This document shows, piece after piece, positions 7,957-53,434 of a stretch of 64,000 nt of DNA. Each line of letters begins with the position of its first letter. Positions within the stretch are counted from its first letter, which is position 1. The stretch is from an uncultured Myxococcales bacterium (GTDB lineage Bacteria; Myxococcota_A; UBA9042). The stretch is from assembly GCA_937910235.1 (NCBI GenBank), contig CALENB010000193.1, positions 2,341 through 66,340 of the forward strand, read 5' to 3'. The notes beneath the pieces are model-generated. The model was not told the origin of the DNA, ran no database searches, and saw nothing but the letters and a program-made list of their open reading frames with translations. Made by a program: the position numbers and the translations under genes.

Positions 7957-7990
7957 GATACTGGCCAGGCCGTACACGCCGGCACGCCGT

Positions 7991-8110: not shown

Positions 8111-8125
8111 AGGAAAGAAGACATG
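8111..8125 (+). promoter_or_regulatory. Shine-Dalgarno plus start codon of serS
   Basis: aggaaagaagacATG. The purine-rich SD sits 6-12 nt before the ATG at 8123. Confidence 0.4.
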
Positions 8126-9424: not shown

Positions 9425-9560
9425 GCGCGACCGCTCCGACGCGCGCGCTCGTAGCCCGGGGTTCGGCACGTGTGACTTGCGGCGCGTGATTTGGGCGCGA
9501 GCGCTTGCGGACTGAGGCGAATGGCTTGGCCCACGTGACGGGCAGAGGCGGTCGCGACCG

Positions 9561-13015: not shown

Positions 13016-13018
13016 GGG

Positions 13019-14056: not shown

Positions 14057-14245
14057 TGTCGGGTCCTTCGTCAGAGAGGCGGAAGCCATGGCAATTTGAC
14101 GCCACGAGGGACGTGCGGGCGCGAGAATCTATGCGCGCAAGGTAGTGAAGTCAACGCGCACGGCCGGTTGACCGAGCCCAGACTCACAGATTTGAGCCTG
14201 ATGACCCGCGCTGATGGGCCGCAAACGTCGCGTCTGCGGCCCGTG

Positions 14246-35426: not shown

Positions 35427-37679
35427 GTGATCTGCACCATGCCCACCCAGCAACCCACCCCGCCAATCGAGCCCTCCAGCCGCCGCCGCACCTGGCTCGA
35501 CCATGGCGTGGGTTTGGCGCTGTTTGTTGGCAGTCTGCTGACCCTGGTTTCCACCAACGACATGGGGTTTGTGCGCGACGAGGCCTTCTATTTCCGCCAC
35601 GCCGAGACCTACCAGGACTGGTTTGTCGACGTCGAAGCGGGCGGTGAGTCCAGGACCAGCGCCCTGCGCCGAGACCAGCTCCTCACCACGTGGCGCAACA
35701 ACGCGGAACATCCGCCGCTCGACAAGATCTTGTTCGGCTGGTCGTGGCGGCTCTTCGGCCGCAAATTGCGGCCCGCCAGCGGCCTGAGCATCGACAAGGC
35801 ACAGCTGCAGGTCCGAATCTCCGGCCTGGGCGCGTCGCACGGCTTCGCGAAGGACGCCCGGGTGCGCCTGTTGCGACCGCAGCTGGTGGGACAAGATCCC
35901 GATCCTGACCGGCGTGTCCTGGCCTCTGGCGTGGTCACCGATCGCACGCGGTGGGGCGCGACGGTGACGCTGAACACCGCCGGCGCGCCGACCCTGGCCC
36001 CCGGCGTGGCCCCGGGCATGCAGTTGGCCGCCAAACTCAAGCGGCTGCAGGCCATCTGCCAAGGTGCCGGCCCCGACGCCGGCGCTAGCGACGGTCCCGT
36101 GATCCGCCGCACCGGATGCGAAGCGCTGGAGGAGCGTGCCGCCTACGTCCTGAGCGAGTCTGAGGCCATGCGCGCGCCCGGCGCCTTGTTCGCGGCGCTA
36201 TTGGTGTGGCTGATGTGGCTCACCGCCCGCGGCTTCTTCTGGAGCGCGGGTGGCCGGCAACCTCTCATGGGCCGCCCCTTCGCAGCGCTCGCCGCCGTCG
36301 GTTTCCTGCTCCTGCCGCGCGCGTTTTACCACGCGCACTTGGCGTGTTTTGACATGACCATCGTCACGCTGCTCTTCGCGACGACGGTCGGGTATCACGC
36401 CTCGCTGCGTCGTCGGCGCTGGATCGGGCCGGTGGCCGTGCTCTGGGGCCTGTCTCTGCTAGCGAAACACAACGCCTTGGTGTTGCCCGGCGCGCTAATG
36501 GTGCACTGGCTCTGGGACGCCGCCGCCGAGGGCCGCCTGCAACTCTGCGCCCCAAACGGCGGCCCGCTGCGACCCACGCGCGACGCGCTGATGTGGCTCG
36601 GTGGCGCCTTGGTGCTGGCCCTCGCCGCGGCGACGCTCTCCAAGCTGCTCGCCCTCGCCGTCCTTCTCGCGGGTCTCGCCAAGGTCGCTCGGGTGCAGCT
36701 GCCGCCGATGCCCACGGCGTGGTTCGCCATGCTCCCCGTCGGCTTTGTGGTGTTGATCGTGGGCTGGCCGCTGCTGTGGGTCGATACGCTCGACAATTTC
36801 CTCAAATGGATGGAGTTCCACCTGCATCACGAGCACTACATGCAGGTCTATTTCGGCCGTGTGCTGGCCTACCCGCCGTTCCCGTTCGCCATGCCGTGGC
36901 TGCTCACCGCCCTCACCTGGCCGCTGACGCTGCTCCTACCGGCGGTCGCTGGGTTCGCCGCGGGTGTCGGGCGCGAGGCAGCTTGGCTCGTGAGGCGACC
37001 CACACACGGCCCGCAAACTGGCGCTGATAGCGCCGCCGCCCGCAGCTTCAATCGGCTGTGCCTCATGAGCGCGGTCTGGCCCGTGCTGCTGATCGCCATC
37101 CCGAGCACGCCCGTCTTTGGTGGCACCAAACATTGGTTTCTCGCCTACCCGTTCTTGCTCTTGCTCGCGGCGCGGACGTTGGAGTCCGCCTGGCAGGCGA
37201 CCCTGGCGCAGCGGTTGCCGCGCGGGCAGGCCGTCGTCGCGGCGTGGCTCCTTGTGCTGCTCGTCGGCGCACCCGCGGCGAAGGCGACGTGGGATGTGCA
37301 CCCCCATGGTACGGCCTACTACAACGAGCTGATCGGCGGCGTGCCGGGCGCCGCTCGCGCCGGGATGCAGCGACAGTTTTGGGGCGGCGCGACGCGGGAT
37401 GGCCTCGAGCAGATCAACCGTCGCGCCAAGAAACACGCGCGGGTCTGGTTCCATAACAGCGCCTGGGGCGCGTATCGCATGTATCAGCGCGAGGGTTGGC
37501 TGCGGCGAGACCTGTCGTACAGCGGCGACCCCAAGGACGCCAGCTACGGCTTTTTCCACCATCAGCGGGCCCACGACGACTATGAGCTGGAGTGCATGAG
37601 CGCCTTCAACACGGCGACGCCGATTCAGCAGGTCCACATCGAGGGGGTCCCGATCTTGTCCGTCTACAAACGACGCTAG
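35427..37679 (+). CDS. Polytopic membrane protein, GT-C-fold glycosyltransferase-like (ArnT/PMT family-like)
   Basis: First loop has DE-x-xY (VRDEAFYFRHAETY), typical of the GT39/GT83 families. A soluble insert follows, then about 10 more TM helices. 750 aa. Confidence 0.55.
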   Translation: MICTMPTQQPTPPIEPSSRRRTWLDHGVGLALFVGSLLTLVSTNDMGFVRDEAFYFRHAETYQDWFVDVEAGGESRTSALRRDQLLTTWRNNAEHPPLDKILFGWSWRLFGRKLRPASGLSIDKAQLQVRISGLGASHGFAKDARVRLLRPQLVGQDPDPDRRVLASGVVTDRTRWGATVTLNTAGAPTLAPGVAPGMQLAAKLKRLQAICQGAGPDAGASDGPVIRRTGCEALEERAAYVLSESEAMRAPGALFAALLVWLMWLTARGFFWSAGGRQPLMGRPFAALAAVGFLLLPRAFYHAHLACFDMTIVTLLFATTVGYHASLRRRRWIGPVAVLWGLSLLAKHNALVLPGALMVHWLWDAAAEGRLQLCAPNGGPLRPTRDALMWLGGALVLALAAATLSKLLALAVLLAGLAKVARVQLPPMPTAWFAMLPVGFVVLIVGWPLLWVDTLDNFLKWMEFHLHHEHYMQVYFGRVLAYPPFPFAMPWLLTALTWPLTLLLPAVAGFAAGVGREAAWLVRRPTHGPQTGADSAAARSFNRLCLMSAVWPVLLIAIPSTPVFGGTKHWFLAYPFLLLLAARTLESAWQATLAQRLPRGQAVVAAWLLVLLVGAPAAKATWDVHPHGTAYYNELIGGVPGAARAGMQRQFWGGATRDGLEQINRRAKKHARVWFHNSAWGAYRMYQREGWLRRDLSYSGDPKDASYGFFHHQRAHDDYELECMSAFNTATPIQQVHIEGVPILSVYKRR

Positions 37680-37857: not shown

Positions 37858-39624
37858 ATGTTGGCCCGACGCAAGAACGCTCTCCGCGCCAGCCGCATCG
37901 GCTCGTCGGTTCTGTGCGTCCTGAGCGTCCTGAGCGTCCTGGGTGTCGTGGGGCCGCCGCGAGTCGTGATCGCCGCGGTGCCGCAGGCGGCGTCGGTCAC
38001 TCCCACGGCCGTCACCCCCACGGCCGTCACCTCCACGTCCGTCAAGCCCAGATCGGCACCACCAAAGTCCGGCGGCGTCGCTGCAGGCCCGGGTCCAGTC
38101 GCCGGCACCGATGGCCCCGGCGTGCTCGCCGCGACGCCCGTCGCCACGACGCGCCTGATCTCGTTGGACCTCCATGGCACCCTGCGACTGCGAGGACAGC
38201 GGCTCCACAACGGCGGGCTCGGGGACGGTGGCTCGGGCGTACCTGCGACCGTCAATCGCCTCGGTCTGAGCGGTGGCGGCGACGATTTGAGTTTGGTCGA
38301 TGTGCGACTGCGACTCGATCCCACGCTGAACCTCGGCAGCCGCGCCCGCGTCGATGCCCAGATCGACGTGTCTGGGGGCCTCGTCTACGGTGCGAAGCTG
38401 CCATCGAGCGCGGTCCTCAGTCACGCAGTCGGCATGTTCGGGGACACCGCCTGGCATGACCTCGTGGCCGTCCGGCGCGCTTGGGCCACGTTTGAGTTGT
38501 TCGGTCTCGCCGAGCTGGTCATCGGTCGCACAGGCGACCACTTCGGCCTGGGTATCTGGCGCAACGATGGCCGAGATCCGCTCTCGGATTTCCAGTCCGA
38601 CGTCGATCGCGTCTCGCTGCGAGGCCAGATCTTGGGTCTGCGGCTGATGTTGGCGCGTGACACGATGGCCACGTTGCCGGCGATCTTCAACGGCGCCGAC
38701 GGTGACGACATCCGCTACGGCTTGCAGGACGCCACCGACGTCGTGCGGTGGCTCGCGCAGGTCGAGGGCGGCGCCGAAAAGGTGACCGACAAGGGCCTGC
38801 GCTGGGGCTTTGCGGTCGGCTATCACAGCCAGACGCTCGGTCTTCGGGTCGAGCATGAAGACGCCGCAGGCGTCGCCCTCAACCCGGGCTGCGTCGCTGC
38901 TGGCACGTGCGTCCAGCTCGTGCCGCGCGAAGCGCTGATGATCGTGCCGCAGGGCTCCGTCGGTTGGCGTGGCAACACCCGTCTCGGGCTGCTCGCCGCG
39001 GAGGCTGAGGCGGTGATGCGCCTCGCTACTTTTGACAACACCGACGCGCTGCCCAACACCGACACCGGCACGACGCTGATCGGTGGCGCGCTCGCCGGTC
39101 GGGTGACGCTGAGAACCGGCTCGCACGAATGGCGTCTGCGCGCCGGCTGGGCCAGCGGTGACGCCACCGGCGGCTTCGGTGTGCTCGACCGCGCTAACCT
39201 CGCGGTCGTCGATCCCGCCACCAAGGAGCTGGTGCACCGCGATTTCGTTACCGGGATGGCGATGCACCGCGGCTTCTTGGTCGGCGGCACCCTGTTTCGC
39301 GAGGTGATTGGGGCCGTCGCAAACGCTTGGTACGCGCGGCCATCGTGGCGCCTCGCGCTGACGCCCGCGACGCCGACAGGCGGCGTCTCCGTCGAGCTGG
39401 GTTGCCTCGTCGCGGGCGCGGCCCAGTGGGGCGCCACGCCTGGCAAACGCACGCTGCTCGGCGTTGAACCGGAGCTGCAAGTCGACGCCCGCTTGGGTCG
39501 CTTCGGCCGTGGCGTGCTGCAGACCAGCTACTTCCTGCCAGGCCCGGCCTTTGACACGGGCCTCGGCGGCAGCCCGGCCGAGTCGGCGTGGCGCCTGAAC
39601 GCGGCTTGGGTCGTCGACTTCTAG
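37858..39624 (+). CDS. Putative outer-membrane beta-barrel protein
   Basis: The internal ATG at 37858 gives a clean signal peptide (MLARRKNALRASRIGSSVLCVLSVLSVLGVVGPPRVVIAA). A Thr/Pro/Ala linker is followed by alternating amphipathic beta-strand-like sequence. It ends in the C-terminal aromatic residue typical of OMPs (...AAWVVDF). Confidence 0.55.
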   Translation: MLARRKNALRASRIGSSVLCVLSVLSVLGVVGPPRVVIAAVPQAASVTPTAVTPTAVTSTSVKPRSAPPKSGGVAAGPGPVAGTDGPGVLAATPVATTRLISLDLHGTLRLRGQRLHNGGLGDGGSGVPATVNRLGLSGGGDDLSLVDVRLRLDPTLNLGSRARVDAQIDVSGGLVYGAKLPSSAVLSHAVGMFGDTAWHDLVAVRRAWATFELFGLAELVIGRTGDHFGLGIWRNDGRDPLSDFQSDVDRVSLRGQILGLRLMLARDTMATLPAIFNGADGDDIRYGLQDATDVVRWLAQVEGGAEKVTDKGLRWGFAVGYHSQTLGLRVEHEDAAGVALNPGCVAAGTCVQLVPREALMIVPQGSVGWRGNTRLGLLAAEAEAVMRLATFDNTDALPNTDTGTTLIGGALAGRVTLRTGSHEWRLRAGWASGDATGGFGVLDRANLAVVDPATKELVHRDFVTGMAMHRGFLVGGTLFREVIGAVANAWYARPSWRLALTPATPTGGVSVELGCLVAGAAQWGATPGKRTLLGVEPELQVDARLGRFGRGVLQTSYFLPGPAFDTGLGGSPAESAWRLNAAWVVDF

Positions 39625-39743: not shown

Positions 39744-42700
39744 ATGAAGATCCGTCTCGTTGCGCTCAGTTGTGCTTGTGTATTGCTGGCTTCGGCCTGT
39801 GGCACGGACGGGACAACCGAGCCGGGCCCCGACACGTCAGCGACGCAAGACACCGTGAGCACTGGCGACGTGGCCGTGGATTCTGGCGGGTCCGCGGACA
39901 CCAGCGCCACAGCGGACGTGCCGGATGTCGCCCAAACCGACAGCGCGGTCGCCGATGCCACCGACAGCACTGCTTCCGACAGCACTGCTTCCGACAGCAC
40001 GGCCTCCGACAGCACCGCCTCCGACAGCACCGCCTCCGACGCTGTAGACGCAGGCGACCTGGACGCCACGCAAGTCGACACGCTCTCGGCGGACACGCCA
40101 GACACCGCGCAGGCGGACTCCGCGCAGCCGCCGGTTGACGCTGGCGCCCTCGACAAGGTCAGCGAGCACAGCAAGGCCTGCTCGACCGGCAGTGACTGTA
40201 CGATCCCGTGCGCCACGGGCACCTGCAATCAGGGCAAGTGCGACTACGACGTAGGCGGCGGCTGCGTTGTGCCCGTCGGCGCCGACAAAGTCGCCTGCTA
40301 CCCAGCCGGCGCGCCGAAAAAAGACGCGCCGTGCCTGACGTGCAAGCCCGAGGTCAGCCAGACCAGCCTCACCTCGGTGACGGAGCTGGTGCCCTTCGAG
40401 AAGACCGACGAAGGCTGGGCGGTCGTCGACGTGAGCGGCAGCGGCATCAAGTGGGGCCTGAGCGACAAGCGCACGGCCGGCGGCAAGATGAGCCTGTACC
40501 TCGGCGACCCGAAGAGCTCCGTCTACGCGAACGACAAACACGTCAAAGCGAGCGTCACCACACCCGCGATGACCATTCCGACCAACGACGGCGTGAAGGC
40601 ATCGCTGCACTTTTCGCTCTACCTCGATACCGAAGAGACGAAGGGCTACGACTTCTTGACCGTGCAGGTGTTGGAAGACAAGGCCGGCGCGACGGCCGAG
40701 GCGCTGTGGCACAGCGACAGCATCGGTGGAACGACGCACAAGGTCTGGCAGATGCAGAAGATCGACGTGAGCAAGTGGGGCGGCAAGAAGGTCAAGTTCG
40801 TCTTCACGTTCGATACGCTCGACGGCTTCGTCAACGCATTCGAGGGCGCGTACATCGATGAGCTGTCGATTCGCACCGGCTGCTGCGGCGGCGGCGGCGA
40901 CTGTGACGACGGCAACGCCTGCTCCACCGACGCCTGCGCTCCGACCACGGCCAGCAAGGGGCTGCCGGTCTGCGGCCACGTCGTGACGAAGGCGTGCTGC
41001 AGCAGCAGCGCCGACTGCGACGACGGCAAACCTTGCACCCTCGACCTCTGCAGCGGCCCCGGCGGCAGCTGCTCGCACAGCGCAAAGCCCGGCTGCTGCA
41101 TGACCACGGGCGACTGCGATGACAAAGACGCCTGCACGATCGACCACTGCCCCAAGGCGGGCTCAAACTGCCAGCACACCAACACCTGCTGCAAGACCGA
41201 CAACGAATGCACCAGCGCGGACACCTGCCTCACCGGCAAGTGCGCCGGCGGCGACTGCGCGTTCACCAACATCTGCTGTTCGAAGGACAACGAGTGCGAC
41301 GACTTTAACCCCTGCACCATCGACGCGTGCGACAAGGGTCAGTGTCTACACAGCCCCAGCAAGGCGCCTGGGTGCTGCGCAGTCGAGCCTATCGTGTATG
41401 AGTTCGACTCTGACATGGAGGGCTGGACCTCCGATGCCAAGCTCGCCAACGGCTTGGTGTGGCACAAGGGCAAGTACAAGGGCACGGCGACTGAAGCTGA
41501 GAACGGCAACGGCGTCCTGAAGTTCGGCGTGGCCGGCACAGACACGTTCGACAAGGTCAGCGGCTCGTTCTACCTCTACACGACCAGCCCGGTCATCGAG
41601 CTCACGCCCGGCCAGCAGTATACGATCGAGATCAAGATGAAGTTCGCGATGAACTACAAGACTTCGTCGAACTACCTCTACCAGTACTACTTGGTGGATG
41701 GCGCTCAGATCACGAGCTATTACAACTACTCCCAGCAGGAGTACTACTACGTGAACCACACGACCGATGACTGGGTCATCTGGCAGAAGGACATCAGCGC
41801 GTTCGCTGGCCGAAAGTTCCAGATCAAGCTGCGGGGCCGGATTTACGGCTATTCCAGCAACTTGCAGTCTGGGCAGGGCACGGTCATCGACTACATCAAG
41901 ATCAAGACCAGCTGCAACATCAAGAAGTGCGCGGACAACGCGACCTGCACCCCGGCTTCGACGTCGTGCCAGGGCGGCAAAGGTATCTGCAACGAGGGCG
42001 GCTGCGTCTTCGCGGCGGGCTGCTGCAAGTCCTCGACTGACTGCGTGAGCCCGACGCTGTGCAGTGTCGGGACGTGCTCAGGTTCGACCTGCACGTTCAA
42101 GGAGAAGGCGAACTGCTGCATGGGGGCCGGTGACTGCGACGACAGCAACCCGTGCACCCAGGACGCCTGCCCAGGTGCCGGCCAGCAGTGCACCCACACC
42201 CCGGTTCCGGGCTGCTGCCTGGCCGCCTCGGAGTGTGACGACAAGCAGAAGTGCACGTCTGACGAGTGTGTCCTCAACAAGTGCAAACACCAGGATATCT
42301 GCTGCAAAGCCGACTCGGAGTGCAACGACAAGGATGACAAGTGCACTACAGATAAGTGCGGCTCAGATAGCTTCTGTCAGTTCACGCCGACGGGCGCCGC
42401 CGGTTGCTGTGAGCCGAATCTGTGGACCAATATCTTCAGCACGTCGCTCCAGAACATGGTGATCAAGAACAGCCAGGGCGCCGCGAAGGGCTGGCAGCTG
42501 TGGACCACCGCGACGTTGTCGAAGAGCCCCACCGGGGTGCTGTACTACGGCAGCCCGTCGGCCAAAAACTACAACTTCGGCGCCAGCAACGGCACGGCGA
42601 CCACGCCTGAGATGGCGTTGCCGGCCGGCAAGACGACCACGCTCTCGCTGTGGCTGTACCAAGCGACGGAGTCGGGCACGTCCTACGACAAGACGTACAT

Positions 42701-42917
42701 CTATCTCATCGACGCGACCGGCAAGAAGACGCAACTCTGGTACAAGGGCACGAAGGGGTTCAGCACAAACAAGTGGTTGGAACTAAGCTTCGACTTGAAG
42801 GAGTGGGCTGGTCAGAAGGTCACGGTGCAGTTCTTGTTCGACACCAACGATTCGGTGTCGAACTCGACGCTGGGCGTGCTGATTGATGACCTGAAGTTCA
42901 CCGTCAAGTGCGACTAA
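39744..42917 (+). CDS. Giant surface lipoprotein (1057 aa): Myxococcus-type cysteine-rich repeats alternating with three MAM-like beta-sandwich domains (paralog 1 of 3)
   Basis: Lipoprotein signal (MKIRLVALSCACVLLASAC-G). Acidic Thr/Asp/Ser/Ala linker with (SDSTA)5. Three roughly 170-aa modules end in a MAM-like C-terminal signature (KVKFVFTFDTLDGFVNAFEGAYIDELSI, RGRIYGYSSNLQSGQGTVIDYIKIKTSC, VTVQFLFDTNDSVSNSTLGVLIDDLKFTVKC). Between them are CC...DCDDGxxCTxDxC repeats (GCCGGGGDCDDGNACSTDACAP, KACCSSSADCDDGKPCTLDLC, GCCMTTGDCDDKDACTIDHC and others). Confidence 0.85.
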   Translation: MKIRLVALSCACVLLASACGTDGTTEPGPDTSATQDTVSTGDVAVDSGGSADTSATADVPDVAQTDSAVADATDSTASDSTASDSTASDSTASDSTASDAVDAGDLDATQVDTLSADTPDTAQADSAQPPVDAGALDKVSEHSKACSTGSDCTIPCATGTCNQGKCDYDVGGGCVVPVGADKVACYPAGAPKKDAPCLTCKPEVSQTSLTSVTELVPFEKTDEGWAVVDVSGSGIKWGLSDKRTAGGKMSLYLGDPKSSVYANDKHVKASVTTPAMTIPTNDGVKASLHFSLYLDTEETKGYDFLTVQVLEDKAGATAEALWHSDSIGGTTHKVWQMQKIDVSKWGGKKVKFVFTFDTLDGFVNAFEGAYIDELSIRTGCCGGGGDCDDGNACSTDACAPTTASKGLPVCGHVVTKACCSSSADCDDGKPCTLDLCSGPGGSCSHSAKPGCCMTTGDCDDKDACTIDHCPKAGSNCQHTNTCCKTDNECTSADTCLTGKCAGGDCAFTNICCSKDNECDDFNPCTIDACDKGQCLHSPSKAPGCCAVEPIVYEFDSDMEGWTSDAKLANGLVWHKGKYKGTATEAENGNGVLKFGVAGTDTFDKVSGSFYLYTTSPVIELTPGQQYTIEIKMKFAMNYKTSSNYLYQYYLVDGAQITSYYNYSQQEYYYVNHTTDDWVIWQKDISAFAGRKFQIKLRGRIYGYSSNLQSGQGTVIDYIKIKTSCNIKKCADNATCTPASTSCQGGKGICNEGGCVFAAGCCKSSTDCVSPTLCSVGTCSGSTCTFKEKANCCMGAGDCDDSNPCTQDACPGAGQQCTHTPVPGCCLAASECDDKQKCTSDECVLNKCKHQDICCKADSECNDKDDKCTTDKCGSDSFCQFTPTGAAGCCEPNLWTNIFSTSLQNMVIKNSQGAAKGWQLWTTATLSKSPTGVLYYGSPSAKNYNFGASNGTATTPEMALPAGKTTTLSLWLYQATESGTSYDKTYIYLIDATGKKTQLWYKGTKGFSTNKWLELSFDLKEWAGQKVTVQFLFDTNDSVSNSTLGVLIDDLKFTVKCD
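39960..40040 (+). repeat. In-frame 15-bp tandem repeat x5 encoding (SDSTA)n in the paralog 1 linker
   Basis: tccgacagcac[tc]gc[tc] is repeated five times head-to-tail. Confidence 0.8.
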
Positions 42918-42921
42918 ACGG

Positions 42922-45438
42922 ATGGCGACGATGGTTGTGATGTGCGTGCGCGAATCGAGACCCTCTGGCGCGCGAGCGCGCACCCGATCCGGCCCAGGGG
43001 GGCGTTGGTCGCCTGCTGGCATGTCGACCGGCGTGTCGTTGCTGTTCGTGTCGGTGGCGTTGCTGGTCGGCGTCCTGGGCTGCAGCGCTGATGGCGACGC
43101 CAAGAAGGACACCGCCGCCGCGGACACGACCGGCGACACGACCGACGACGCTGGCGCGGACACGGGCCTGTCGAGCGACGCCGTGGGCGCTGACGCCAGC
43201 GACGCGACGACGCTGGACGTGCTCCAGACCGACACCGCGGTCGTGACCGATCTTGGCGCACCCGACGCCGGGCCTGAGTGCGCCACCGCGGCGGATTGCG
43301 CCGGTAAGGTGACGCCCAAGTCCTGCGAAGAGGCCATTTGCCTCAACGGCGCTTGTGGCCTGCAGCTCAAGGCGGACTCTTGCTGCGAAGACAAGCACTG
43401 TGACGACGGCGCCGAGTGCACGTTGGACCAGTGCGACGACGCGCAGAACTCATGCAAACACACCACCGTCGTCAACTGCTGTAGCGGCAAGGTGTCGCTG
43501 TTAAAGCTCGGTTTTGAGCAGGGCAAGTTGGGTGAGCTCACGGCGAGCGTCACGAAGGGCGGCGAAGGCCCCGGTGGCGTCGCTTGGCAGGTTGACGGCA
43601 AGCGGTCGCGGGTCGGCGGCAAGGCCCTGCACCTGAGCAACGCCTGTGGCACCTACGACACCTCGATGAATCCGGCCAACGCCTGCGCTGGCGGCAAGGA
43701 CGCGGCGCCCGTCTCGGCGACCCTGACCGCGAAGGGCATCACCTTGCCGAAAGACAAGTCGACGATGTTGCACTTCTGGCTCTGGTTACAGACCGAACCG
43801 ATGTACGCCGAGACCTTGCCGACTGGGACCTGCGCGAAGCCGTGCCCGACTGGCGCGAGCTGTGTCAGCGTGAACGGCGCGGCGCAGTGCATCCCCGAGA
43901 AGGACGTGCTGACGGTCACGATCATCAGCGACAAGGGCGCAAAGAAGGTCTTTGACTCGACGACAATCGGCAAGAGCACGGACGGCGACTGGCGCCACGT
44001 GGCGGTGGATTTGAGCGATCTGGCCGGCGCGACCGTCGACGTTCAGTGGCGATTCGACACGGCGACGGGCATCAAGAACGCCTTCGAGGGGGTCTGGCTC
44101 GACCAGATCGAGATGGAGACGATCTGCCCGGTGAAGGGCACCTTGTGCGCGAAGGACGCGCCGTGTCTGGCGGACAACAGCGTCTGCAGCGAAGAGACCT
44201 GCACGTTTTACAGCAACAACGCGGTGAAGGGGTTCTGCTTTCACGACAAGGCGGTGGGGTGCTGCACGGTCTCCAACGAATGCGACGACGGCGCGCCATG
44301 TACGATCGATGTCTGCAACAAGGGCGTCTGCGAATCCAAGCCGGACGCGAGCAAGGACAGCTGCTGCAAACCGTCCATCAGCTTGGTGGATGACTTCGAC
44401 TCAGGCGTGCTCACCGACTGGAAGTTGCTGGACGCGAACTCTGAGGTCGTGCGCTGGCGGATTGACCCCAAGGGCGGCACCAAGGGCTCGCAGGCGTTGT
44501 ATTTTGGGGATAGTAGCTTCTCCAGCTACGATGACACGAGCCTCGCCAAGGGTGTCGGCCCCACCGGCGCCGCGTGTAGCAAGCTGGTCCAGCTGAAGGT
44601 CGGCTCGCTCTACAATCAGGCCACGTTCCAGCTGCAGATGGAGACCGAGTGGAGCTATCTGGCCAAGGCGATCTACAAGAATCCGCCGTTGGCTGGTCAG
44701 CCGAAATTCGACCATCTGGCCGTGCAAGTGCGGGTGGCTGGCAAGGTGCACGAGGCGTGGAGCAGCGACCTCATCTACGGCACGACCGACGGCGGCTGGC
44801 GCGCGATCGTGGTTGATCTCGACAAGTGGCAGGGGCAGCAAGTGCAGGTCTGCTTGGCGTTCGACGCCGGCGACGACCAGGTCAACGACAAGGCTGGCGT
44901 CCTCGTGGACGACTTTGTGCTGCGCGTCGCGTGTGCCAAGGCGAGCTGCTACTACGACGCCGAGTGTGCTGGAACCTGCCCGGCGTGCCAGGCGCCCGGG
45001 TGCGCGGCCGGTGGCTGTGGTTGCGTGCCGCTCCCTGGCTGCTGCACGAGCACGGCGGACTGTGATGACGGCGATCCGTGCACGTCCGACAGCTGTCTGC
45101 AATCGCAGTGCAAACACACGACGAACCCGGCCTGTTGCAAGGCCGACACGGACTGCAGCAGCACGAACGTGTGCGCGAAGGCGGTGTGTGATCTGTCCAA
45201 GCACCTCTGCGGCACCCAGCCCGTCGATGGCTGCTGCGCCGACGACGCGGCCTGCACGACGCAGAACCTATGCATGACGAGCAGCTGCGACGTAGCGAAA
45301 CACGTCTGCAGTGAGCAGCCGAAGCCGGGTTGCTGCAACCAGGACAGCGCTTGCGACGACAAGGACGCCTGCACCAAGGACCTCTGCATCGACGCGAAGT
45401 GCACGTATCAGCCGTCCGGCCAGTCCGGCTGCGACTAG
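42922..45438 (+). CDS. Giant surface lipoprotein (about 806-838 aa), paralog 2 of 3 (Myxo cysteine-rich repeats plus MAM-like domains)
   Basis: Same architecture as paralog 1. MAM-like ends: VDVQWRFDTATGIKNAFEGVWLDQIEMETIC and VQVCLAFDAGDDQVNDKAGVLVDDFVLRVAC. Cys repeats: CCEDKHCDDGAECTLDQCDD, GCCTVSNECDDGAPCTIDVC, GCCTSTADCDDGDPCTSDSC. The lipobox (LLVGVLGC-S) follows the internal ATG at 43021. The true start may be 42922, 42940 or 43021. Confidence 0.85.
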   Translation: MATMVVMCVRESRPSGARARTRSGPGGRWSPAGMSTGVSLLFVSVALLVGVLGCSADGDAKKDTAAADTTGDTTDDAGADTGLSSDAVGADASDATTLDVLQTDTAVVTDLGAPDAGPECATAADCAGKVTPKSCEEAICLNGACGLQLKADSCCEDKHCDDGAECTLDQCDDAQNSCKHTTVVNCCSGKVSLLKLGFEQGKLGELTASVTKGGEGPGGVAWQVDGKRSRVGGKALHLSNACGTYDTSMNPANACAGGKDAAPVSATLTAKGITLPKDKSTMLHFWLWLQTEPMYAETLPTGTCAKPCPTGASCVSVNGAAQCIPEKDVLTVTIISDKGAKKVFDSTTIGKSTDGDWRHVAVDLSDLAGATVDVQWRFDTATGIKNAFEGVWLDQIEMETICPVKGTLCAKDAPCLADNSVCSEETCTFYSNNAVKGFCFHDKAVGCCTVSNECDDGAPCTIDVCNKGVCESKPDASKDSCCKPSISLVDDFDSGVLTDWKLLDANSEVVRWRIDPKGGTKGSQALYFGDSSFSSYDDTSLAKGVGPTGAACSKLVQLKVGSLYNQATFQLQMETEWSYLAKAIYKNPPLAGQPKFDHLAVQVRVAGKVHEAWSSDLIYGTTDGGWRAIVVDLDKWQGQQVQVCLAFDAGDDQVNDKAGVLVDDFVLRVACAKASCYYDAECAGTCPACQAPGCAAGGCGCVPLPGCCTSTADCDDGDPCTSDSCLQSQCKHTTNPACCKADTDCSSTNVCAKAVCDLSKHLCGTQPVDGCCADDAACTTQNLCMTSSCDVAKHVCSEQPKPGCCNQDSACDDKDACTKDLCIDAKCTYQPSGQSGCD

Positions 45439-45587
45439 GCCGGCCTCTTGACCAGCCGGAAAGACAAGGCCCACTTGTTTGCGCTGGTTGCGGTGCGCCG
45501 GTAGACTCTCAGAACACAGGATCTCTCCCCGTGGCTCACCGCTCGGCGGTGCTGCGGAGCGGGTCACCCCCTCGATAGGATCTCGCC

Positions 45588-48500
45588 ATGCAGCGGCACG
45601 CACTCTCGTTTCTCTTCCCCGACGCTCGGCTGCTCGGCATCACCGCCAAGCTCGCCGTGGTTGCGCTGGCGCTCGCAGTCGCTGCGTGTGGCTCCGACCC
45701 CAAGCCCAAGGACACCACGACGGTGGTCGAGGACTCGGGGCCGACGGACTCGGGGGCGGCCGACACTGTTCTTGGTGACGCGGACGCGACGGCAGCTGTC
45801 GATTCAAGCCAGCCGGATGTCACGAGCGGCGATGTCGCGCAGGCCGACGCCGCTGACGCTGGCCAGGCCGATACGGCCACGTTCATCTGCACGAGCGACC
45901 AGTACTGCCTCTCGCTGTTCAAGGATGAGCTCGGTGGCTTTCAGACCGCCGTCTGCGTCGCAGGAACGTGCGAAAAGGTTACAAAAGCAGGCTTTTGTGC
46001 CAACAGCGGCGACTGTGACGATGGCTCGGAGTGCACGGAAGACTCCTGTGATCTGACCACGAACAAGTGTGTATCGAGCCCCAAACCGAACTGCTGCGCT
46101 GGCAAAGTCACGGTGCTCAACGCGCGTTTTGAGCAGAACAGCATGGTCGGGTTTGTTGGCACGACCAACCCCAGCCTCAACAACAACGTGACGTGGCAGC
46201 TGAGCTCAAACCGGGCCCACGGCGGCAAATCGAGCGTCTACCTGGGCAACGAGTGCAACACCTTCGACTCGTCGATGTCGGCTGCGGGCGGCTGCAAAGG
46301 CGGGCCCTCACCGATCGCTTTTGAGGCGAACCTGCTGTCGCAGGAGGTGGTGTTGCCGCAAAACAAGCCCGCGATTGCGCACTTTTGGGTCTGGATTGAA
46401 GCCGAGCCGATGTACGACGCCGAAGGTAGCTGCGCAAATCCGTGCCCGATCGGCGCCACGTGCGTGAAGGTCGACAAGAGCACCTCGGTCTGCATTCCCG
46501 AGCCGGACGTGCTCAAGATCTTCGTCCAGACCGGCGCGCCGTCACCCGATCCGGTGTGGGTGAGCACCGAGGTGAAGAAGACGACGAATGGTTGGGTCCA
46601 TGTCGCCATCAACCTCGCGCCGTACCAGAAGAAAGACAAAGAGACCGCGGTGAAGCTGCGTTGGAGCTTCAAGTCCAACAACGTCAAGAACGGCTTTGAG
46701 GGCGTGTACATCGACGATGTCGTCATCGAGACGCTCTGCGTGACCGCCGGCAGTCAGTGTTCAAAGAAGGCGCCCTGTGCCGACGACAAGAACGGCTGCA
46801 CCCTTGATTCCTGCACGTATTTTGCGAACGACAACAGCCAGGGGCTGTGTTTTGCGGACAAGTCCGCGGGTTGCTGCATCAACGTCGCGGACTGCAACGA
46901 CCTAAATGACTGCACGGTCGACAAGTGCACGCTCGCGAGCGGCGCCGCCACGGGACTGTGTGACAACGCGCCTGACGCCAACAACGCGCAGTGCTGCCAG
47001 CCTAAGGACGTCTACGGCGACAACTTTGAGTCAGGTTCGATCGCGGCCTGGACCCACGTTGGCTCCAACAGCAAGGAAGTGAAGTGGCAGGTCAGCGACA
47101 AGGTCGGCGCTGGCGTTGGTGGTGGAAAGAGCCTGTACTTCGGCAACACCGACACCTCGAAGGGCTACCACGACCCCGCGCTCGGCAGCACGAAGGGCGC
47201 CACGGGTCGGATCTGCTCGCCGTCGATGACCATCGCGCAGGGCACGCTCTACGACGTGCTGACGTTCGACCTGCTGCTGCAGACCGAGTGGTCCGGAAAG
47301 CCGGCGGCAAACTACGCCAACCCGCCGTGTCCGCAGGGTCCAGGCAAATGCGAGCCCAACAAGATCGATGTCTTCGCGGTCGAGGTGTTCTCGGTCGGCC
47401 AGTACCAGGAGATCTGGAGCAGCGACGCCATCAAGGGCACCACCGAGGCCAAATGGCTGCCGACGTTTGTCTCGCTCGACAAGTACCAGGGCAAGCAGGT
47501 GCAGCTCTGTTTCTCGTTCGACGCGGGTGACGGGAGCGCCAACACGGTCGGCGGCGCGTGGGTCGACAATGTGAAGCTGGCGGTCCAGTGCACCGCCAAA
47601 GAGTGCGCGATCGACAGCCAGTGCGAGGCGAAGTGCGGCCCGTGCGCGACGGCGAGCTGCGGCGGTGACGGCAAGTGCGCGTGCACGCCAATCGCCGGCT
47701 GCTGCGCGAAGACGGAGGACTGCGCGGATGGGGACAAGTGCACCACGGAGACGTGTGACAAAGGCGAGTGCAAGTACTCGCTGACCTCTCCGACCTGCTG
47801 CACCGACAAGATCGGCAAGGACGCCGTCTTTAGCCAGGACTGGGAGGCCAGCTCGAAGGTGCCGAGCGACTGGAAGGTCATCGTCCCGACCGGAAAGAAT
47901 GACCTCGGCTACACGTACGCGGCGGACAAGGGTTGGCGCATGTCGGTCAAGAGCAAGCCCGGCACCGGCAACTACGCGCTCTATTTTGGCGGCGCCGACG
48001 GCACGCTGAACGCAGGAACGGACGCGCCGGCTGGCACGGTCACGGGACCGGAGTTCACGGTTCCGAAGAATGGCACCACGCTCATCAACTTCGACCTGTA
48101 CCTGAACACGGAATGGGATGATTTTCCCTTCAAGCTGCCGCCGCTCGCGATCGATCAGCTGTTTGTGAACGTCATCGACGTCGCCGAGAAAGATGCGGCC
48201 AAAGCCGTGGTCGCGGTCTGGGACAGCTACGCGATCGAGGGGACCACGAAGGGCAAGTGGCAGGCGGTCGTCATGGCGATCCCGGCGAGCTTGGCGGGCA
48301 AGAAGGTGCGCCTGCAGTTCGTGTTTGAGTGTGGCACCGACACCAACAACAAGGGCGAGGGCGCGTTCATCGACAACCTGCAGGTCGAGACCCTCTGCAC
48401 GAAGCCGGCCTGTGTCGCAGATCTGGATTGCCAGCCCAAGGTGCCGGATGCCTGCAAGAAGTCGTGGTGCGGCAAGGACGACAAGGGCGCCTACGCGTGT

Positions 48501-49169
48501 GAGTCGGAGTTCAAGGCTGGCGCGGGCTGCTGCGCGTCGAGCGTCGCGCTACCTATCGAGTCGGGCGAGAGCGGCAGCTTCGTGAAGTGGGGCGGCACGC
48601 CGTTCACCGGCGACGTGAAGTGGCAGATCATCAGCCACAAGTACTTGGTCGGTAAGAAGGAGATCTACTTCGGCAACGCCGCCGCGTGGAACTACGCCGC
48701 GGGCAGCGCCAAGGTGTGCGCCGTCGTCGCTGATTGTCCCACTGGATCGGGCGAGCAGTGCACGGGCGCCCCTGGTTCCAAGAAGTGCTACAAGCCGGTG
48801 AGCGCGGAGCTGCTGAGTAATCCCTTCGACCTGTCCGCCGACCCAGGCAAGCTGGCGGCCCTGAAATTCAAGGCCTACTTCGATGTCGAGACACAGTGGG
48901 AGTCGCTGGAGATCTGGGTCAGCTACCTCGATCAGGTCGGCGGCATCCCGACGCCGAAGCAGGAGAAGATCTGGGAGAAGAGCGACATCAAGAACATGCC
49001 TGTCGCCGACTACAAGAAGGTCATCGACAAGTCGATCGATCTGTCGAAGTTCAAGGCGAAGTCCAACGTCCGCGTGAAGCTGGTGTTCGATTCGGGCGAC
49101 GCGAACGGCAACGACAAGTATGAGGGCATCTTCCTCGACGATCTCGTTGTCGAAGAGACCTGCAACTAG
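45588..49169 (+). CDS. Giant surface lipoprotein (1193 aa), paralog 3 of 3, with at least four MAM-like domains and Myxo cysteine-rich repeats
   Basis: Lipoprotein signal (LAVVALALAVAAC-G) and an acidic T/D/A linker. Modules end in VKLRWSFKSNNVKNGFEGVYIDDVVIETLC, VQLCFSFDAGDGSANTVGGAWVDNVKLAVQC, VRLQFVFECGTDTNNKGEGAFIDNLQVETLC and VRVKLVFDSGDANGNDKYEGIFLDDLVVEETC. Repeats: GCCINVADCNDLNDCTVDKC, GCCAKTEDCADGDKCTTETC. Confidence 0.85.
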   Translation: MQRHALSFLFPDARLLGITAKLAVVALALAVAACGSDPKPKDTTTVVEDSGPTDSGAADTVLGDADATAAVDSSQPDVTSGDVAQADAADAGQADTATFICTSDQYCLSLFKDELGGFQTAVCVAGTCEKVTKAGFCANSGDCDDGSECTEDSCDLTTNKCVSSPKPNCCAGKVTVLNARFEQNSMVGFVGTTNPSLNNNVTWQLSSNRAHGGKSSVYLGNECNTFDSSMSAAGGCKGGPSPIAFEANLLSQEVVLPQNKPAIAHFWVWIEAEPMYDAEGSCANPCPIGATCVKVDKSTSVCIPEPDVLKIFVQTGAPSPDPVWVSTEVKKTTNGWVHVAINLAPYQKKDKETAVKLRWSFKSNNVKNGFEGVYIDDVVIETLCVTAGSQCSKKAPCADDKNGCTLDSCTYFANDNSQGLCFADKSAGCCINVADCNDLNDCTVDKCTLASGAATGLCDNAPDANNAQCCQPKDVYGDNFESGSIAAWTHVGSNSKEVKWQVSDKVGAGVGGGKSLYFGNTDTSKGYHDPALGSTKGATGRICSPSMTIAQGTLYDVLTFDLLLQTEWSGKPAANYANPPCPQGPGKCEPNKIDVFAVEVFSVGQYQEIWSSDAIKGTTEAKWLPTFVSLDKYQGKQVQLCFSFDAGDGSANTVGGAWVDNVKLAVQCTAKECAIDSQCEAKCGPCATASCGGDGKCACTPIAGCCAKTEDCADGDKCTTETCDKGECKYSLTSPTCCTDKIGKDAVFSQDWEASSKVPSDWKVIVPTGKNDLGYTYAADKGWRMSVKSKPGTGNYALYFGGADGTLNAGTDAPAGTVTGPEFTVPKNGTTLINFDLYLNTEWDDFPFKLPPLAIDQLFVNVIDVAEKDAAKAVVAVWDSYAIEGTTKGKWQAVVMAIPASLAGKKVRLQFVFECGTDTNNKGEGAFIDNLQVETLCTKPACVADLDCQPKVPDACKKSWCGKDDKGAYACESEFKAGAGCCASSVALPIESGESGSFVKWGGTPFTGDVKWQIISHKYLVGKKEIYFGNAAAWNYAAGSAKVCAVVADCPTGSGEQCTGAPGSKKCYKPVSAELLSNPFDLSADPGKLAALKFKAYFDVETQWESLEIWVSYLDQVGGIPTPKQEKIWEKSDIKNMPVADYKKVIDKSIDLSKFKAKSNVRVKLVFDSGDANGNDKYEGIFLDDLVVEETCN

Positions 49170-49216
49170 GTCGCCGCTGTCTCTCGCCCCCCGCACATCT
49201 ACCCAAGGAGGGGCGC

Positions 49217-50191
49217 ATGGCTGCGCTTCGTGATCGCACATTCAACAAGGGCGCCTGGGCGCGTCTCGGGCTGGTTGCGCTTGGGTTGATCGCGGTCGGG
49301 ACCGTCATCTACATCTCCGTTGGCGCGCATGAGCGATTCGTTCAGGTGCCCCGCATGTTGGCGCAGCGGCACGTCGACCCGTTGGGTTACCCAGGCCGAG
49401 CGACGACGCAAATCGCGAGTCTGGGCAGCAAGGCGGTCGAGACCCTGATCGCCGACATGGCGCAGGGCAAGCCGCCGCTGCAACGCGCGAAGAGCCTGGA
49501 GATCCTGAGCGCCATCGATGATCCGCGCGTGGTCCCGGCGCTGTTGACCGCGCTACAAGACGAAGATCTCAGCCTGCGGCTCGCGACGCTGGCGGGCCTC
49601 GCTCGGACGCAGCGGGGCGATCTGGCGCAGCACTTGTGGCCGGCGACGCAGGCGACCAACACGTTCTATCGGCATCGCGCCATCGTCGCGCTAGGCCTCG
49701 TCAGCGCTCCGACGGAGGTGCCGAAGCTCCTGAAAGCGGCCAACGACGGCGCTGGACGCGATCAGCTGCTGTTCATCTGGGCGGCGGGGTACGCGCAGCG
49801 TCGCGCCAAGCTGAAGGACCAAGGCTCCGACCGTGTGCGGCCCATGGCGCTGACCGACGCGGTGCATGAGCGCGCGGTGCAGGATGAGGTGAACGAGCTG
49901 CGAGTCGGCTTTCAGGCCCAGGGTGTGACGGCCGAGACCGCGGAGCGGCTGGCAGAGCTGGTGACCATCGACTTCGGCACGTGGAATCTCAACCACCAGA
50001 TCAGCTACCAAACGCTGATGGTCGCGGGGCCGATGGCGGTGCGCGGCCTAGCGCGGCTCGAGGCGCCTCGAGCGGCGGGCAACGCCAAGGCTGGCGACGC
50101 CAGCGGCAAAGTGAAAGTGAAAGCGCAGCTGCCGATGGAAGGCCTCAAGCTCAAGAATCGACCGGCCGCGATCGACGCCAAATCGAAGTAG
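49217..50191 (+). CDS. Membrane-anchored HEAT-repeat (PBS-lyase-type) protein
   Basis: Strong RBS AAGGAGG 7 bp upstream. N-terminal TM anchor (AWARLGLVALGLIAVGTVIYISVGA). Repeated DPRVVPALLTALQDEDLSLRLATLAGLAR-type HEAT-like units. Confidence 0.6.
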   Translation: MAALRDRTFNKGAWARLGLVALGLIAVGTVIYISVGAHERFVQVPRMLAQRHVDPLGYPGRATTQIASLGSKAVETLIADMAQGKPPLQRAKSLEILSAIDDPRVVPALLTALQDEDLSLRLATLAGLARTQRGDLAQHLWPATQATNTFYRHRAIVALGLVSAPTEVPKLLKAANDGAGRDQLLFIWAAGYAQRRAKLKDQGSDRVRPMALTDAVHERAVQDEVNELRVGFQAQGVTAETAERLAELVTIDFGTWNLNHQISYQTLMVAGPMAVRGLARLEAPRAAGNAKAGDASGKVKVKAQLPMEGLKLKNRPAAIDAKSK

Positions 50192-50359: not shown

Positions 50360-51055
50360 ATGGCGCGTGTGCTGTTGATCGATGATGACGTCCGCTTGGG
50401 GCAGCTCCTTGAGCGGCTGCTGAAGCCGGAAGGCCTCAACGTCGAGTTGGTGACGGACGGGCTGCAAGGCGTGCGCCGCGCTACGGCCGAGGTCTTCGAT
50501 CTCATCATCCTGGACGTGATGCTGCCCGGCCTCGATGGGTTCGAAGTGCTTCGGCGTATCCGGTCTTCCAGCCACGTGCCGGTGATCATGCTCACCGCGA
50601 AAGGCACCGACAACGACCGCATCGTCGGCCTTGAGCTCGGCGCGGATGACTACCTGCCCAAGCCCTTCAACCCGCGTGAGCTGGTCGCCAGGATCAAGGC
50701 TGTGCTGCGGCGCGCCGATGGCGGCACCGCGGCGACCAAAGCCGCGTTGCTTGAGTCCGGCGCGCTGTCGATGGACCCAGGCAAACGCGAGATCAGGGTC
50801 GACGGCGATCACGTGCATCTGACGACGACCGAGTTCGATCTGCTCCGGTGCTTCATGCAATATCCCGGCAAGGTGCTGTCACGCGATGCCCTGATGGACA
50901 TGCTGCGTGGTGTCGGCTACGCCGCCTACGACCGCTCGATCGACGTGCACGTGAAGAACCTGCGCGCAAAAATCGAGACAGACCCGCGACACCCGCAGCT
51001 GATCAAGACGGTGTGGGGCACGGGCTACATGCTCGCCATCGCCAGTGATGAGTAG
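50360..51055 (+). CDS. OmpR/PhoB-family response regulator
   Basis: Receiver domain (MARVLLIDDD...DLIILDVMLPGLDG...MLTAKG) and a winged-helix DNA-binding domain (LTTTEFDLLRCFMQYPGKVLSRDALMDML...YDRSIDVHVKNLRAKIE). Start taken at the internal ATG at 50360. Confidence 0.88.
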   Translation: MARVLLIDDDVRLGQLLERLLKPEGLNVELVTDGLQGVRRATAEVFDLIILDVMLPGLDGFEVLRRIRSSSHVPVIMLTAKGTDNDRIVGLELGADDYLPKPFNPRELVARIKAVLRRADGGTAATKAALLESGALSMDPGKREIRVDGDHVHLTTTEFDLLRCFMQYPGKVLSRDALMDMLRGVGYAAYDRSIDVHVKNLRAKIETDPRHPQLIKTVWGTGYMLAIASDE

Positions 51056-51070: not shown

Positions 51071-52411
51071 ATGACGTCGACGACCCAACCGCCCCCAGCC
51101 GCCCCGCTCGCGACGCCTGCTGCGCCCGACTCTGACCCGCCAGCGCAGGGCGCACCGCTAGCAGACCAGGGGCTCTCGCGCCTGCTGATGCACTTCGACT
51201 TGGCGACGCTGTTGCTGAGCGTCGTTGGGCTGAGCGCCGCGGGCGTCGCCGCCGTGTTGGTCGTGCGGCAGGGAGGGCTCTCCGGCTGGAACGCCTTGAT
51301 CGTGGGGCTGCTGCTGCTCACCGCCGCCTCCGTCGTGGCCTACTACGTGCTCGTCACGTTGGCACGACAGCGTCTGCACGACCGCTTGGCCCTGATGCGA
51401 GACGCGGCGCACGAGCTCGGCGGCGGCGACCTCAGCGTGGCGGTGCCCGAGGGCGATGACGATCTCGGTGCGCTGGGTGCGTCGCTCAATACGATGCGCA
51501 GCCGTGTCGCGCGCCTGATGACGGCACAGCGGGAGCTGTTGAGCGGCGTGAGCCATGAGCTGCGGTCGCCGTTGGCGCGGATCGAGGTGGCGATGGAGCT
51601 CATCGACATGGAGCTCGCTGGGGACGAGGAGCATGAGCTGATCATCGGTGTGCGTGAGGAGGTCGCCCTGCTCGAACGCCACATCTCCAGGCTGTTGGAG
51701 GCGCAACGCGTGACGCGTGACCGCATCGTGCTGACGCGGCGGGCGCTCGTGGTCGACACGCTGCTCGCGCAGGTCATCGCGCGCGAGCGGCTGCGCCTGC
51801 AGAAGCTGGGTTGGCGACTAGACGTGAAGCTCGATGCCGGAGACCACGAGATCCTAGGCGACGAAAACGCCCTCGACAGGGTGTTCTCCACGCTGATCGA
51901 GAACGCGATCCGCCACGCAGCGAGCCCAGGTCCAGAGGCCGCGTATTCGGGGGCGTTCGAGGCTGTCCAAGTGACCGAACCGCCGCCAGACACAGAGTCT
52001 GACAGCACGGCGGTGGTGGCGACACCGGATTCGGCCGAGCTCGCCGCCGACGACAGCCCGCCAGGCCAAGCGGTCACGTGGCGACCGTCGCTGCGGATCG
52101 AGACCGAGATCAGCGAGTTGGGTCTGCTGGTCCGCTTCCTCGACCGTGGCCCGGGTCTTGGCCCTGAGCAGTGCACACGCGTCTTCGAGCCCTTTTTTCG
52201 GGGCGATCAGTCGCGCAGCACGGCGACCGGCGGCACCGGTCTGGGTATGTACCTGACGCGCAATATCCTGCGCGCGCATGGCGGCGATGTGCTCGCCCGT
52301 CCACGGGATGGCGGCGGGCTGATGGTCGAGTTGTGCCTGCCGCTGCGCACGACGAAGGTGCTGAAAGAGACCATGCGTGTGCAGTGGGCGGACGTGCGCG
52401 ACGACGTCTGA
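51071..52411 (+). CDS. Sensor histidine kinase (two TM, HAMP-like linker, HisKA, HATPase)
   Basis: H-box LLSGVSHELRSPLARIEV, N-box TLIENAIRHA, G-boxes FLDRGPGLGPE and GGTGLGMYL. Lies 15 bp after the response regulator. Confidence 0.85.
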   Translation: MTSTTQPPPAAPLATPAAPDSDPPAQGAPLADQGLSRLLMHFDLATLLLSVVGLSAAGVAAVLVVRQGGLSGWNALIVGLLLLTAASVVAYYVLVTLARQRLHDRLALMRDAAHELGGGDLSVAVPEGDDDLGALGASLNTMRSRVARLMTAQRELLSGVSHELRSPLARIEVAMELIDMELAGDEEHELIIGVREEVALLERHISRLLEAQRVTRDRIVLTRRALVVDTLLAQVIARERLRLQKLGWRLDVKLDAGDHEILGDENALDRVFSTLIENAIRHAASPGPEAAYSGAFEAVQVTEPPPDTESDSTAVVATPDSAELAADDSPPGQAVTWRPSLRIETEISELGLLVRFLDRGPGLGPEQCTRVFEPFFRGDQSRSTATGGTGLGMYLTRNILRAHGGDVLARPRDGGGLMVELCLPLRTTKVLKETMRVQWADVRDDV

Positions 52412-53429: not shown

Positions 53430-53434
53430 GGGCC

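Follow-up and report, generated by a model that had tools for sequence, protein, structure and literature searches.

What could three large, neighbouring genes for lipoproteins of a common modular plan be doing in an uncultured bacterium of the Myxococcales (GTDB lineage Myxococcota_A; UBA9042)? Here, we address this question for a 64,000-nucleotide stretch of contig CALENB010000193.1 (assembly GCA_937910235.1, positions 2,341 to 66,340, forward strand), hereafter the window, which is identical to the aquatic-metagenome contig ERZ964670. Three neighbouring plus-strand open reading frames (ORFs), all intact, encode G1, G2 and G3, of 1057, 805 and 1193 aa, respectively. Our analysis leads us to favour, tentatively and with slightly less than even confidence, the reading that these proteins are anciently diverged paralogs that would form ligand-binding arrays at the outer membrane and work together with the porin encoded next to them. 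Of the architecture itself, i.e., secreted, lipobox-bearing proteins in which jelly-roll and Cys-rich modules are arrayed on an acidic tether, we are highly confident. The genes and their parts are as follows (positions in the window).

39744..42917, plus strand: G1 lipoprotein, 1057 aa; exceeds the gathering threshold for PF20773 (44.9 bits) and for PF00526 (31.2 bits)
39957..40040, plus strand: tandem repeat (TRF, 15 bp x 5.6), in frame, encoding (SDSTA)5 in the G1 stalk
40344..40886, plus strand: G1 module A, a jelly roll; the structural model spans it and its flanks (G1 residues 140-452)
41376..41915, plus strand: G1 module B, divergent Tyr-rich jelly roll without a Pfam match, detected by the module profile
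42408..42914, plus strand: G1 module C (PF20773, 1.9e-6, 27.9 bits)
43021..45438, plus strand: G2 lipoprotein, 805 aa; lipobox Cys21, then the stalk
43480..44127, plus strand: G2 module A (residues 154-369)
44365..44934, plus strand: G2 module B (residues 449-638)
Residues 638-805 of G2, plus strand: C-terminal tail of four CTDC-type units
45588..49169, plus strand: G3 lipoprotein, 1193 aa; lipobox Cys34, then the stalk; PF20773 (50.0 bits)
46095..46739, plus strand: G3 module A (residues 170-384)
46995..47591, plus strand: G3 module B (residues 470-668)
47799..48398, plus strand: G3 module C (residues 738-937)
48531..49166, plus strand: G3 module D (residues 982-1193), the four G3 modules having Cys-rich linkers between them

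The layout of G1 comprises a signal peptide with lipobox (residues 1-19), the acidic stalk (20-139), a Cys-rich segment c0 (140-200), module A (201-381), five CTDC-type units (380-545), module B (545-724), further CTDC units (724-889) and module C (889-1057). The intergenic gaps are 103 bp (G1-G2) and 149 bp (G2-G3), and 47 bp separate G3 from the following gene, which encodes a HEAT-repeat protein. Translation of G2 from the first ATG, at 42922, would yield 838 aa, with 33 extra, Arg-rich residues; the start at 43021, which gives 805 aa, is favoured by the public gene call and by ortholog alignments. An initial annotation, made from the sequence without database searches, had described three same-strand paralogous lipoproteins of these sizes sharing one modular plan, with gaps of 100-150 bp, an in-frame (SDSTA)5 repeat and 3, 2 and at least 4 modules; the ORFs, lipoboxes, stalks, repeat scan and module profile bear out each of these points, the last giving 3, 2 and 4 modules of 169-216 aa, nine per locus.

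Each signal peptide ends in a PROSITE-type lipobox (LLASAC19 in G1, GVLGC21 in G2 and AVAAC34 in G3), which is also detected in most orthologs, and the lipobox Cys is retained among them, in at least 90% in the case of G3. With a signal peptide, a lipobox and an invariant Cys, all three proteins are predicted to be signal peptidase II substrates and, hence, lipidated. The stalks that follow are 65-120 aa long, rich in D, T, A and S (20-23% Asp), and carry a net charge of -12 to -25; at the site of the G1 stalk repeat, orthologs have other short repeats that differ by lineage. Cys accounts for 5.5-8.6% of the residues of G1-G3. The G+C content of the three genes (window positions 40001-50000) is 0.625-0.644, below the value of about 0.69 in the flanks, and their AT skew is positive (0.05-0.21), both of which fit a composition rich in Asp, Thr, Lys and Asn.

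In Myxococcus xanthus, Lys at position +2 marks lipoproteins for retention in the inner membrane (PMC3222651). The +2 residues here are Gly in G1, Ser in G2 and Gly in G3, so that the rule points, weakly because it derives from a distant relative, to the outer membrane. According to a preprint (10.1101/2021.01.05.425367), disordered linkers occur in about half of the outer-membrane lipoproteins of Escherichia coli. Given the lack of a +2 Lys and the long disordered N-terminal linkers, outer-membrane anchoring of G1-G3 appears probable, whereas for exposure on the cell surface the chances seem evenly balanced. In M. xanthus, lipoproteins with Ala at position +7 reportedly go to the extracellular matrix (PMC3222651); G2 has Ala at this position (mature N-terminus CSADGDA), G1 has Thr and G3 has Pro.

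What, then, are the large modules? All share a W, an LYFG motif, T-E, W-x-S-D..G-T-T and the terminal F-x-F-D...N..EG..IDD...C. The whole proteins match Pfam family PF20773 (Immune inhibitor A-like, MAM domain) with 44.9 (G1), 30.4 (G2) and 50.0 bits (G3), above the gathering threshold of 26.9 bits. Among the isolated modules, 6 of 9 match this family (E of 2e-6 to 6e-3), with no single module scoring above the domain threshold, and relatives reach 236 bits. G1 module A also gives a weak Cleaved_Adhesin match in the Pfam scan of isolated modules. The classical MAM family, PF00629, whose eukaryotic representatives include meprin, neuropilin-1, RPTPmu/kappa and SR-C, was matched neither by any of the nine isolated modules at E<=10 nor by the whole proteins. 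In the NCBIfam model NF038128 (choice-of-anchor J), G2 scores 20.8 and G3 16.4 bits, below the curated cutoff of 30, and G1 has no match; nevertheless, NCBI names one G1 ortholog (P0055) and a Vulgatibacter relative as choice-of-anchor J domain-containing, and a family tie of the modules to this domain is likely, with the window proteins falling below the cutoff.

A structural model of G1 residues 140-452, built from an alignment of 28 orthologous segments, has a mean pLDDT of 92.4. In the Foldseek comparison of this model with the PDB, the best matches are meprin beta (2.2e-7), the MAM domain of neuropilin-1 (4.6e-7) and InhA2 (5.5e-7; 21-22% identity), followed by meprin alpha, LAST-MAM, gingipain K1/K3 and CBM22. 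As modelled with its flanks, G1 module A is a jelly-roll beta-sandwich of about 170 aa that superimposes on solved MAM domains and likewise matches the MAM-like domain of InhA2. A classical MAM domain carries four conserved intradomain cysteines, whereas modules A, B and C of G1 have none inside the domain, their cysteines being confined to the CC at the flank and the C at the end; in the other modules, different cysteines are borne on insertions. The modules are, thus, bacterial InhA-like members of the MAM/cleaved-adhesin/carbohydrate-binding-module (CBM) jelly-roll superfold rather than eukaryote-type MAM domains. Of the resemblance to eukaryote-type MAM domains proposed at the outset, the first half stands: because of the PF20773 matches and the Foldseek top ranks, "MAM-like" is a fair description. 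The qualifier "eukaryote-type" does not stand, given the lack of PF00629 matches and of internal cysteines in G1. A sequence search of G3 against PDB chains gave no match, and a literature search on the InhA MAM structure retrieved nothing. A peptidase function of G1-G3 was considered and rejected, no catalytic domain having been found in the Pfam and NCBIfam scans.

The spacers between these modules consist of units of about 31-33 aa with six cysteines, CC-x5-C-x5-C-x4-C-x4-7-C, and a CC doublet stands before each of the large modules; the spacing CC-x5-C-x5-C-x4-C is common to G1, G2 and G3. Against Pfam PF00526 (Dicty_CTDC; gathering threshold 27 bits), G1 scores 31.2 bits over four stretches and G2 16.6 bits, and G3 has no match; most G1 orthologs have a precomputed PF00526 match. 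In the model of G1 residues 140-452, these units are small beta-hairpin modules with pLDDT of 85-96. They had first been labelled Myxococcus cysteine-rich repeats, an identity for which we find no support and in place of which Pfam suggests the Dicty_CTDC type: NCBIfam gave no matches at E<=10 for four Cys-rich segments and none for the whole proteins, although the presence of a TIGR02232-type model in release 20 was not separately verified.

How old is the trio, and how constant? G2 and G3 share 37% identity and are collinear over about 730-740 aa (the first part of G3), whereas G1 is 25-30% identical to either. A 5.8-billion-protein index contains only 19 relatives of G3, each annotated as "hypothetical" and derived from uncultured "Myxococcales", either from metagenome-assembled genomes (MAGs) or from metagenomes; for G1, the number of full-length orthologs is about 60 (33-69% identity). 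A scan of 185,579 species genomes recovered 14 species, all represented by MAGs, a few of them with obviously wrong taxon labels. In syntenic loci, each of the three positions best matches its own paralog, and the module counts of 3, 2 and 4 recur in every complete ortholog (12/12 for G1, including the solo homolog of locus L017, 12/12 for G2 and 14/14 for G3). Because of this constancy, the triplication predates the clade and the module numbers are fixed. The cysteines are likewise invariant among orthologs. Conservation of the remainder is uneven: the stalk has a mean identity of 20% and a length of 48-133 aa; CC doublets in the C-terminal CTDC tail of G2 number 8 among close relatives and 4-5 among distant ones; and, within G1, the first CTDC array averages 60% identity and modules A and C 43%, compared with 26% for module B, below which only the signal peptide and the stalk fall. 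Overall, G1-G3 diverge by 35-71%, similarly to the porin, the HEAT protein and the kinase, and more than the regulator, which is 73-86% identical across loci. The copy-number variation initially proposed is, hence, not borne out: the modules are invariant in number and order, and variation is confined to the stalks and the tail of G2.

The module itself is far from confined to this clade. From 1.84 billion proteins, its profile retrieved 8,414 cluster representatives (clustering at 50% identity) at E<=1e-3, including 570 at E<=1e-30, at variance with the earlier statement that MAM-like domains are rare in bacteria. These relatives have 2-8 modules and 444-3750 aa, so that module number varies widely in the wider family (up to 8 modules, 3750 aa), though it is fixed in the trio. 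Some larger relatives combine the module with up to 16 Dicty_CTDC stretches, and one matches Reelin_subrepeat-B (7e-17). A second G1-like gene, annotated as 2420 aa, lies on the minus strand at 12557-14101 of locus L020, and further G1 relatives occur in unrelated contexts.

Around the trio, which forms a fixed unit, lie the genes of an 18-strand porin, a HEAT protein and an OmpR-type two-component system, all part of one conserved block. The order GTmem, U588, G1, G2, G3, HEAT, response regulator, kinase, deacetylase recurs in 10-12 of the loci, and the HEAT gene follows G3 in 15/15. The partners in the window are the following.

35439..37679, plus strand: GTmem, 746-aa polytopic membrane protein, possible GT-C (PMT_2-like) glycosyltransferase
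37858..39624, plus strand: U588, predicted 18-strand outer-membrane beta-barrel porin; a signal peptide, then about 70 aa of disordered, T/P/A-rich linker; last residue Phe
49217..50191, plus strand: HEAT-repeat protein, 324 aa, with an N-terminal membrane anchor (PF13646 HEAT_2, 7.6e-8)
50360..51055, plus strand: OmpR-type response regulator (Response_reg and Trans_reg_C), 73-86% identity across loci
51071..52411, plus strand: sensor histidine kinase (HAMP/HisKA/HATPase in the domain scan)
52494..53429, plus strand: CE4 polysaccharide deacetylase with DUF3473, TIGR03006-like (242.9 bits against a cutoff of 276.2)

As modelled, U588 has the 18-strand beta-barrel fold of the AlgE/OccD-OprD/MOMP/maltoporin class; its matches to MOMP, OccD, chitoporin, maltoporin and AlgE are on a par. 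It scores 129.6 bits (E of 1.6e-37) against TIGR04551, below the curated cutoff of 300, and several of its orthologs are labelled as this family by JGI; it is best treated as a divergent relative of TIGR04551. A sequence search of U588 against PDB chains gave no match, and a literature search on TIGR04551 retrieved nothing. Between its signal peptide and barrel (residues 28-95) lies a T/P/A/V-rich linker with short repeats (TPTAVTPTAVTSTSV) and pLDDT <50; such a disordered linker is unusual for an 18-strand porin. The HEAT domain is probably periplasmic, as the positive-inside rule implies. GTmem has no Pfam, NCBIfam or PDB match, and a profile of 8 orthologs also found none among PDB chains; one of the 8 matches PF13231 PMT_2 (5.5e-6), and a DEAFYF motif in the first loop is invariant, so that a GT-C activity is a lead resting on one ortholog match and a motif. 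GTmem is encoded just upstream of lipoproteins with Ser/Thr-rich stalks, and O-glycosylation of the stalks is a possible link. In 9 loci its gene precedes that of the porin, and in another (L002) sigma and anti-sigma genes take its place. TIGR03006 comprises the deacetylase of the XrtA/PEP-CTERM system; at 52494-54880 of the window, the deacetylase gene is followed by one for a FadL/Toluene_X-like outer-membrane protein, and both are syntenic in relatives. A scan for promoters and terminators found no promoter, and terminator-like sites were fewer than in shuffled sequence; it thus yields no evidence of an operon.

Under the reading that we favour, G1-G3 would be lipidated and sent to the outer membrane, from which the flexible acidic tethers would project rigid, disulfide-rich arrays, nine modules in all. 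The modules, having no catalytic role, would bind a ligand that is either a polysaccharide or a protein, and the three proteins probably constitute a non-redundant set working with the adjacent porin, such that a ligand might be captured or concentrated at the pore, or an exported polymer held there; the adjacent two-component system probably controls expression. The functional coupling of the trio to the porin, taken separately, is possible but doubtful. A bolder version, in which the porin, the three lipoproteins and the periplasmic HEAT protein form a single undescribed envelope machine, namely, a TonB-independent "capture-and-channel" or polymer-tethering system in which the MAM-like arrays would feed a macromolecular ligand to, or hold it at, the 18-strand pore under two-component control, we consider quite unlikely.

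Several observations weigh against the porin-associated binding arrays. The block encodes no hydrolase, TonB-dependent transporter or ABC importer, so that a nutrient-capture role would lack a downstream partner, and no ligand-binding site was identified in the modules. Synteny may partly reflect relatedness, given that the regulator is 73-86% identical and the downstream housekeeping genes are also syntenic, and all family members come from MAGs. Sequence alone does not separate a surface-exposed from a periplasm-facing orientation. Furthermore, the partnership is not universal. In loci L007 (stretch 1-10000) and L008 (stretch 1-3300), G3, the HEAT gene, the response regulator and the kinase occur without porin, G1 and G2 upstream, where the region is different; the deacetylase is present in L007, and L008 ends within the regulator. 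A bona fide TIGR04551 porin locus elsewhere (L021) has no MAM-like neighbours, and distant solo G1 homologs (L017 and L018) adjoin a secreted HExxH protein and a kinase rather than the porin. We checked for an upstream porin at these two loci and found in its place the gene for a conserved secreted protein of 473-479 aa with the motif HEITHAV (L017 7366-8805; L018 4633-6054); this partnership of an HExxH protein and a histidine kinase is itself conserved and differs from that in the window. The minus-strand ORF upstream in L007 looks FtsK-like by eye.

Alternatively, G1-G3 could be cell-cell or cell-prey adhesins or kin-recognition receptors, engaged in homophilic or heterophilic adhesion like the MAM domains of RPTPmu and meprin or the gingipain adhesin domains, with the porin an unrelated neighbour. 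The closest Foldseek structures are, indeed, true MAM and cleaved-adhesin domains, and domains of the choice-of-anchor J type, found in surface T9SS (type IX secretion system) cargo, have been described as putative adhesins (PMC11969387). The stalks are variable, and module B of G1, at 26% identity compared with 43% for the other G1 modules, could carry specificity. However, module number and order are invariant across species, and G1 and G3 recur unchanged in sequence on 5-10 contigs, their clusters containing no variants, unlike in polymorphic kin-recognition loci. Because, moreover, the adhesin scenario leaves unexplained the conserved adjacency to the porin, the HEAT protein and the two-component system in about 12 species, we regard it as unlikely.

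Another scenario, to which we likewise assign a low probability, makes G1-G3 periplasm-facing accessories of an exopolysaccharide or envelope-polymer pathway, in which the AlgE-like porin, the HEAT alpha-solenoid, the CE4 deacetylase and the GT-C-like enzyme would make and export a polymer that the lipoproteins bind, guide or tether; or their Ser/Thr-rich stalks might be O-glycosylated by the PMT_2-like enzyme. The likeness of the porin to AlgE, the deacetylase and the PMT_2-like protein speak for this scenario. Against it, no GT2 synthase, Wzx/Wzy, PilZ or TPR protein is encoded in the block, the porin fits MOMP, OccD, chitoporin and maltoporin just as well, GTmem itself has no significant family match and gives way to sigma/anti-sigma genes in L002, and the deacetylase, below its curated cutoff, may be a mere syntenic neighbour. 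Finally, the three genes might be decaying pseudogenes of one gene or an artefact of assembly, the latter raised in the initial annotation as collapsed repeats. Nothing but the repetitive look of the proteins suggests this reading, which can be discarded because the paralogs are only 25-37% identical, the longest DNA repeat inside the region is 136 nt at 71% identity, the frames are intact and the same trio, with its cysteines conserved, is present in more than 10 independent assemblies. We also rejected an origin from a phage or a defence system, no supporting feature having been found, with the PADLOC and PHROGs libraries not searched.

The domain types at this locus are already catalogued (InhA-like MAM, related to choice-of-anchor J, and Dicty_CTDC), so that the trio represents neither a new fold nor a eukaryotic domain brought into bacteria. 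The novelty lies in the cluster, strictly conserved in uncultured freshwater Myxococcota and previously undescribed, in which three multi-module, non-redundant lipoproteins are joined by a porin of the substrate type, a HEAT protein and a two-component system. Should their link prove to be physical and functional, the cluster would show macromolecule capture or display at the outer membrane without TonB-dependent transporters and would give a function to a domain architecture found in thousands of metagenomic proteins. The homology that links the bacterial modules to reelin or to MAM domains also has some interest for evolution.

Among known systems, the SusC/D/SGBP utilisomes of Bacteroidota and the AlgE-AlgK alginate export system similarly place the gene of an outer-membrane channel beside genes of lipoproteins with binding modules. 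The likeness is one of logic only, because a TonB-dependent transporter, a SusD fold, a TPR lipoprotein and a synthase are all missing from the present locus, and its genes accordingly do not include the TonB-dependent SusC and SusD-like lipoprotein that characterize a Sus-like utilisome. Reelin, a eukaryotic secreted glycoprotein, alternates its subrepeats (A - EGF - B) in a comparable manner, with EGF spacers where the window proteins have CTDC units, and the latter show no direct HMM match to it. The cleaved-adhesin domains of gingipains and HagA (PF07675; Kgp K1, 4itc; K3, 3m1h) belong to proteins with a protease, a T9SS C-terminal domain and proteolytic processing sites, all missing from the window proteins, whose PF07675 Pfam score is below threshold. 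The Dictyostelium CTDC repeat (PF00526), for which G1 exceeds the gathering score, differs from the spacers in their period of about 31-33 aa and in the CC doublet at unit boundaries. The choice-of-anchor J proteins (NF038128) are multi-module surface proteins and T9SS cargo in Bacteroidota, whereas G1-G3 are predicted to be anchored by an N-terminal lipid and not by a C-terminal sorting signal; one choice-of-anchor J protein, from Vulgatibacter incomptus (2172-2176 aa; P0260, member WP_157370364.1), was retrieved by the module profile and has seven PF20773 stretches, with He_PIG Ig domains as spacers in place of CTDC repeats. The best HMM match of G1-G3 is the InhA-like MAM domain of Bacillus immune inhibitor A and M6 peptidases (PF20773; PDB 4yu5/4yu6), a likeness reflected in the Foldseek E of 5.5e-7 and the shared C-terminal strand motif F-x-F-D...EG..IDD; compared with InhA, the window proteins dispense with the peptidase domain and combine 2-4 modules per protein with Cys-rich spacers and a lipoprotein tether.

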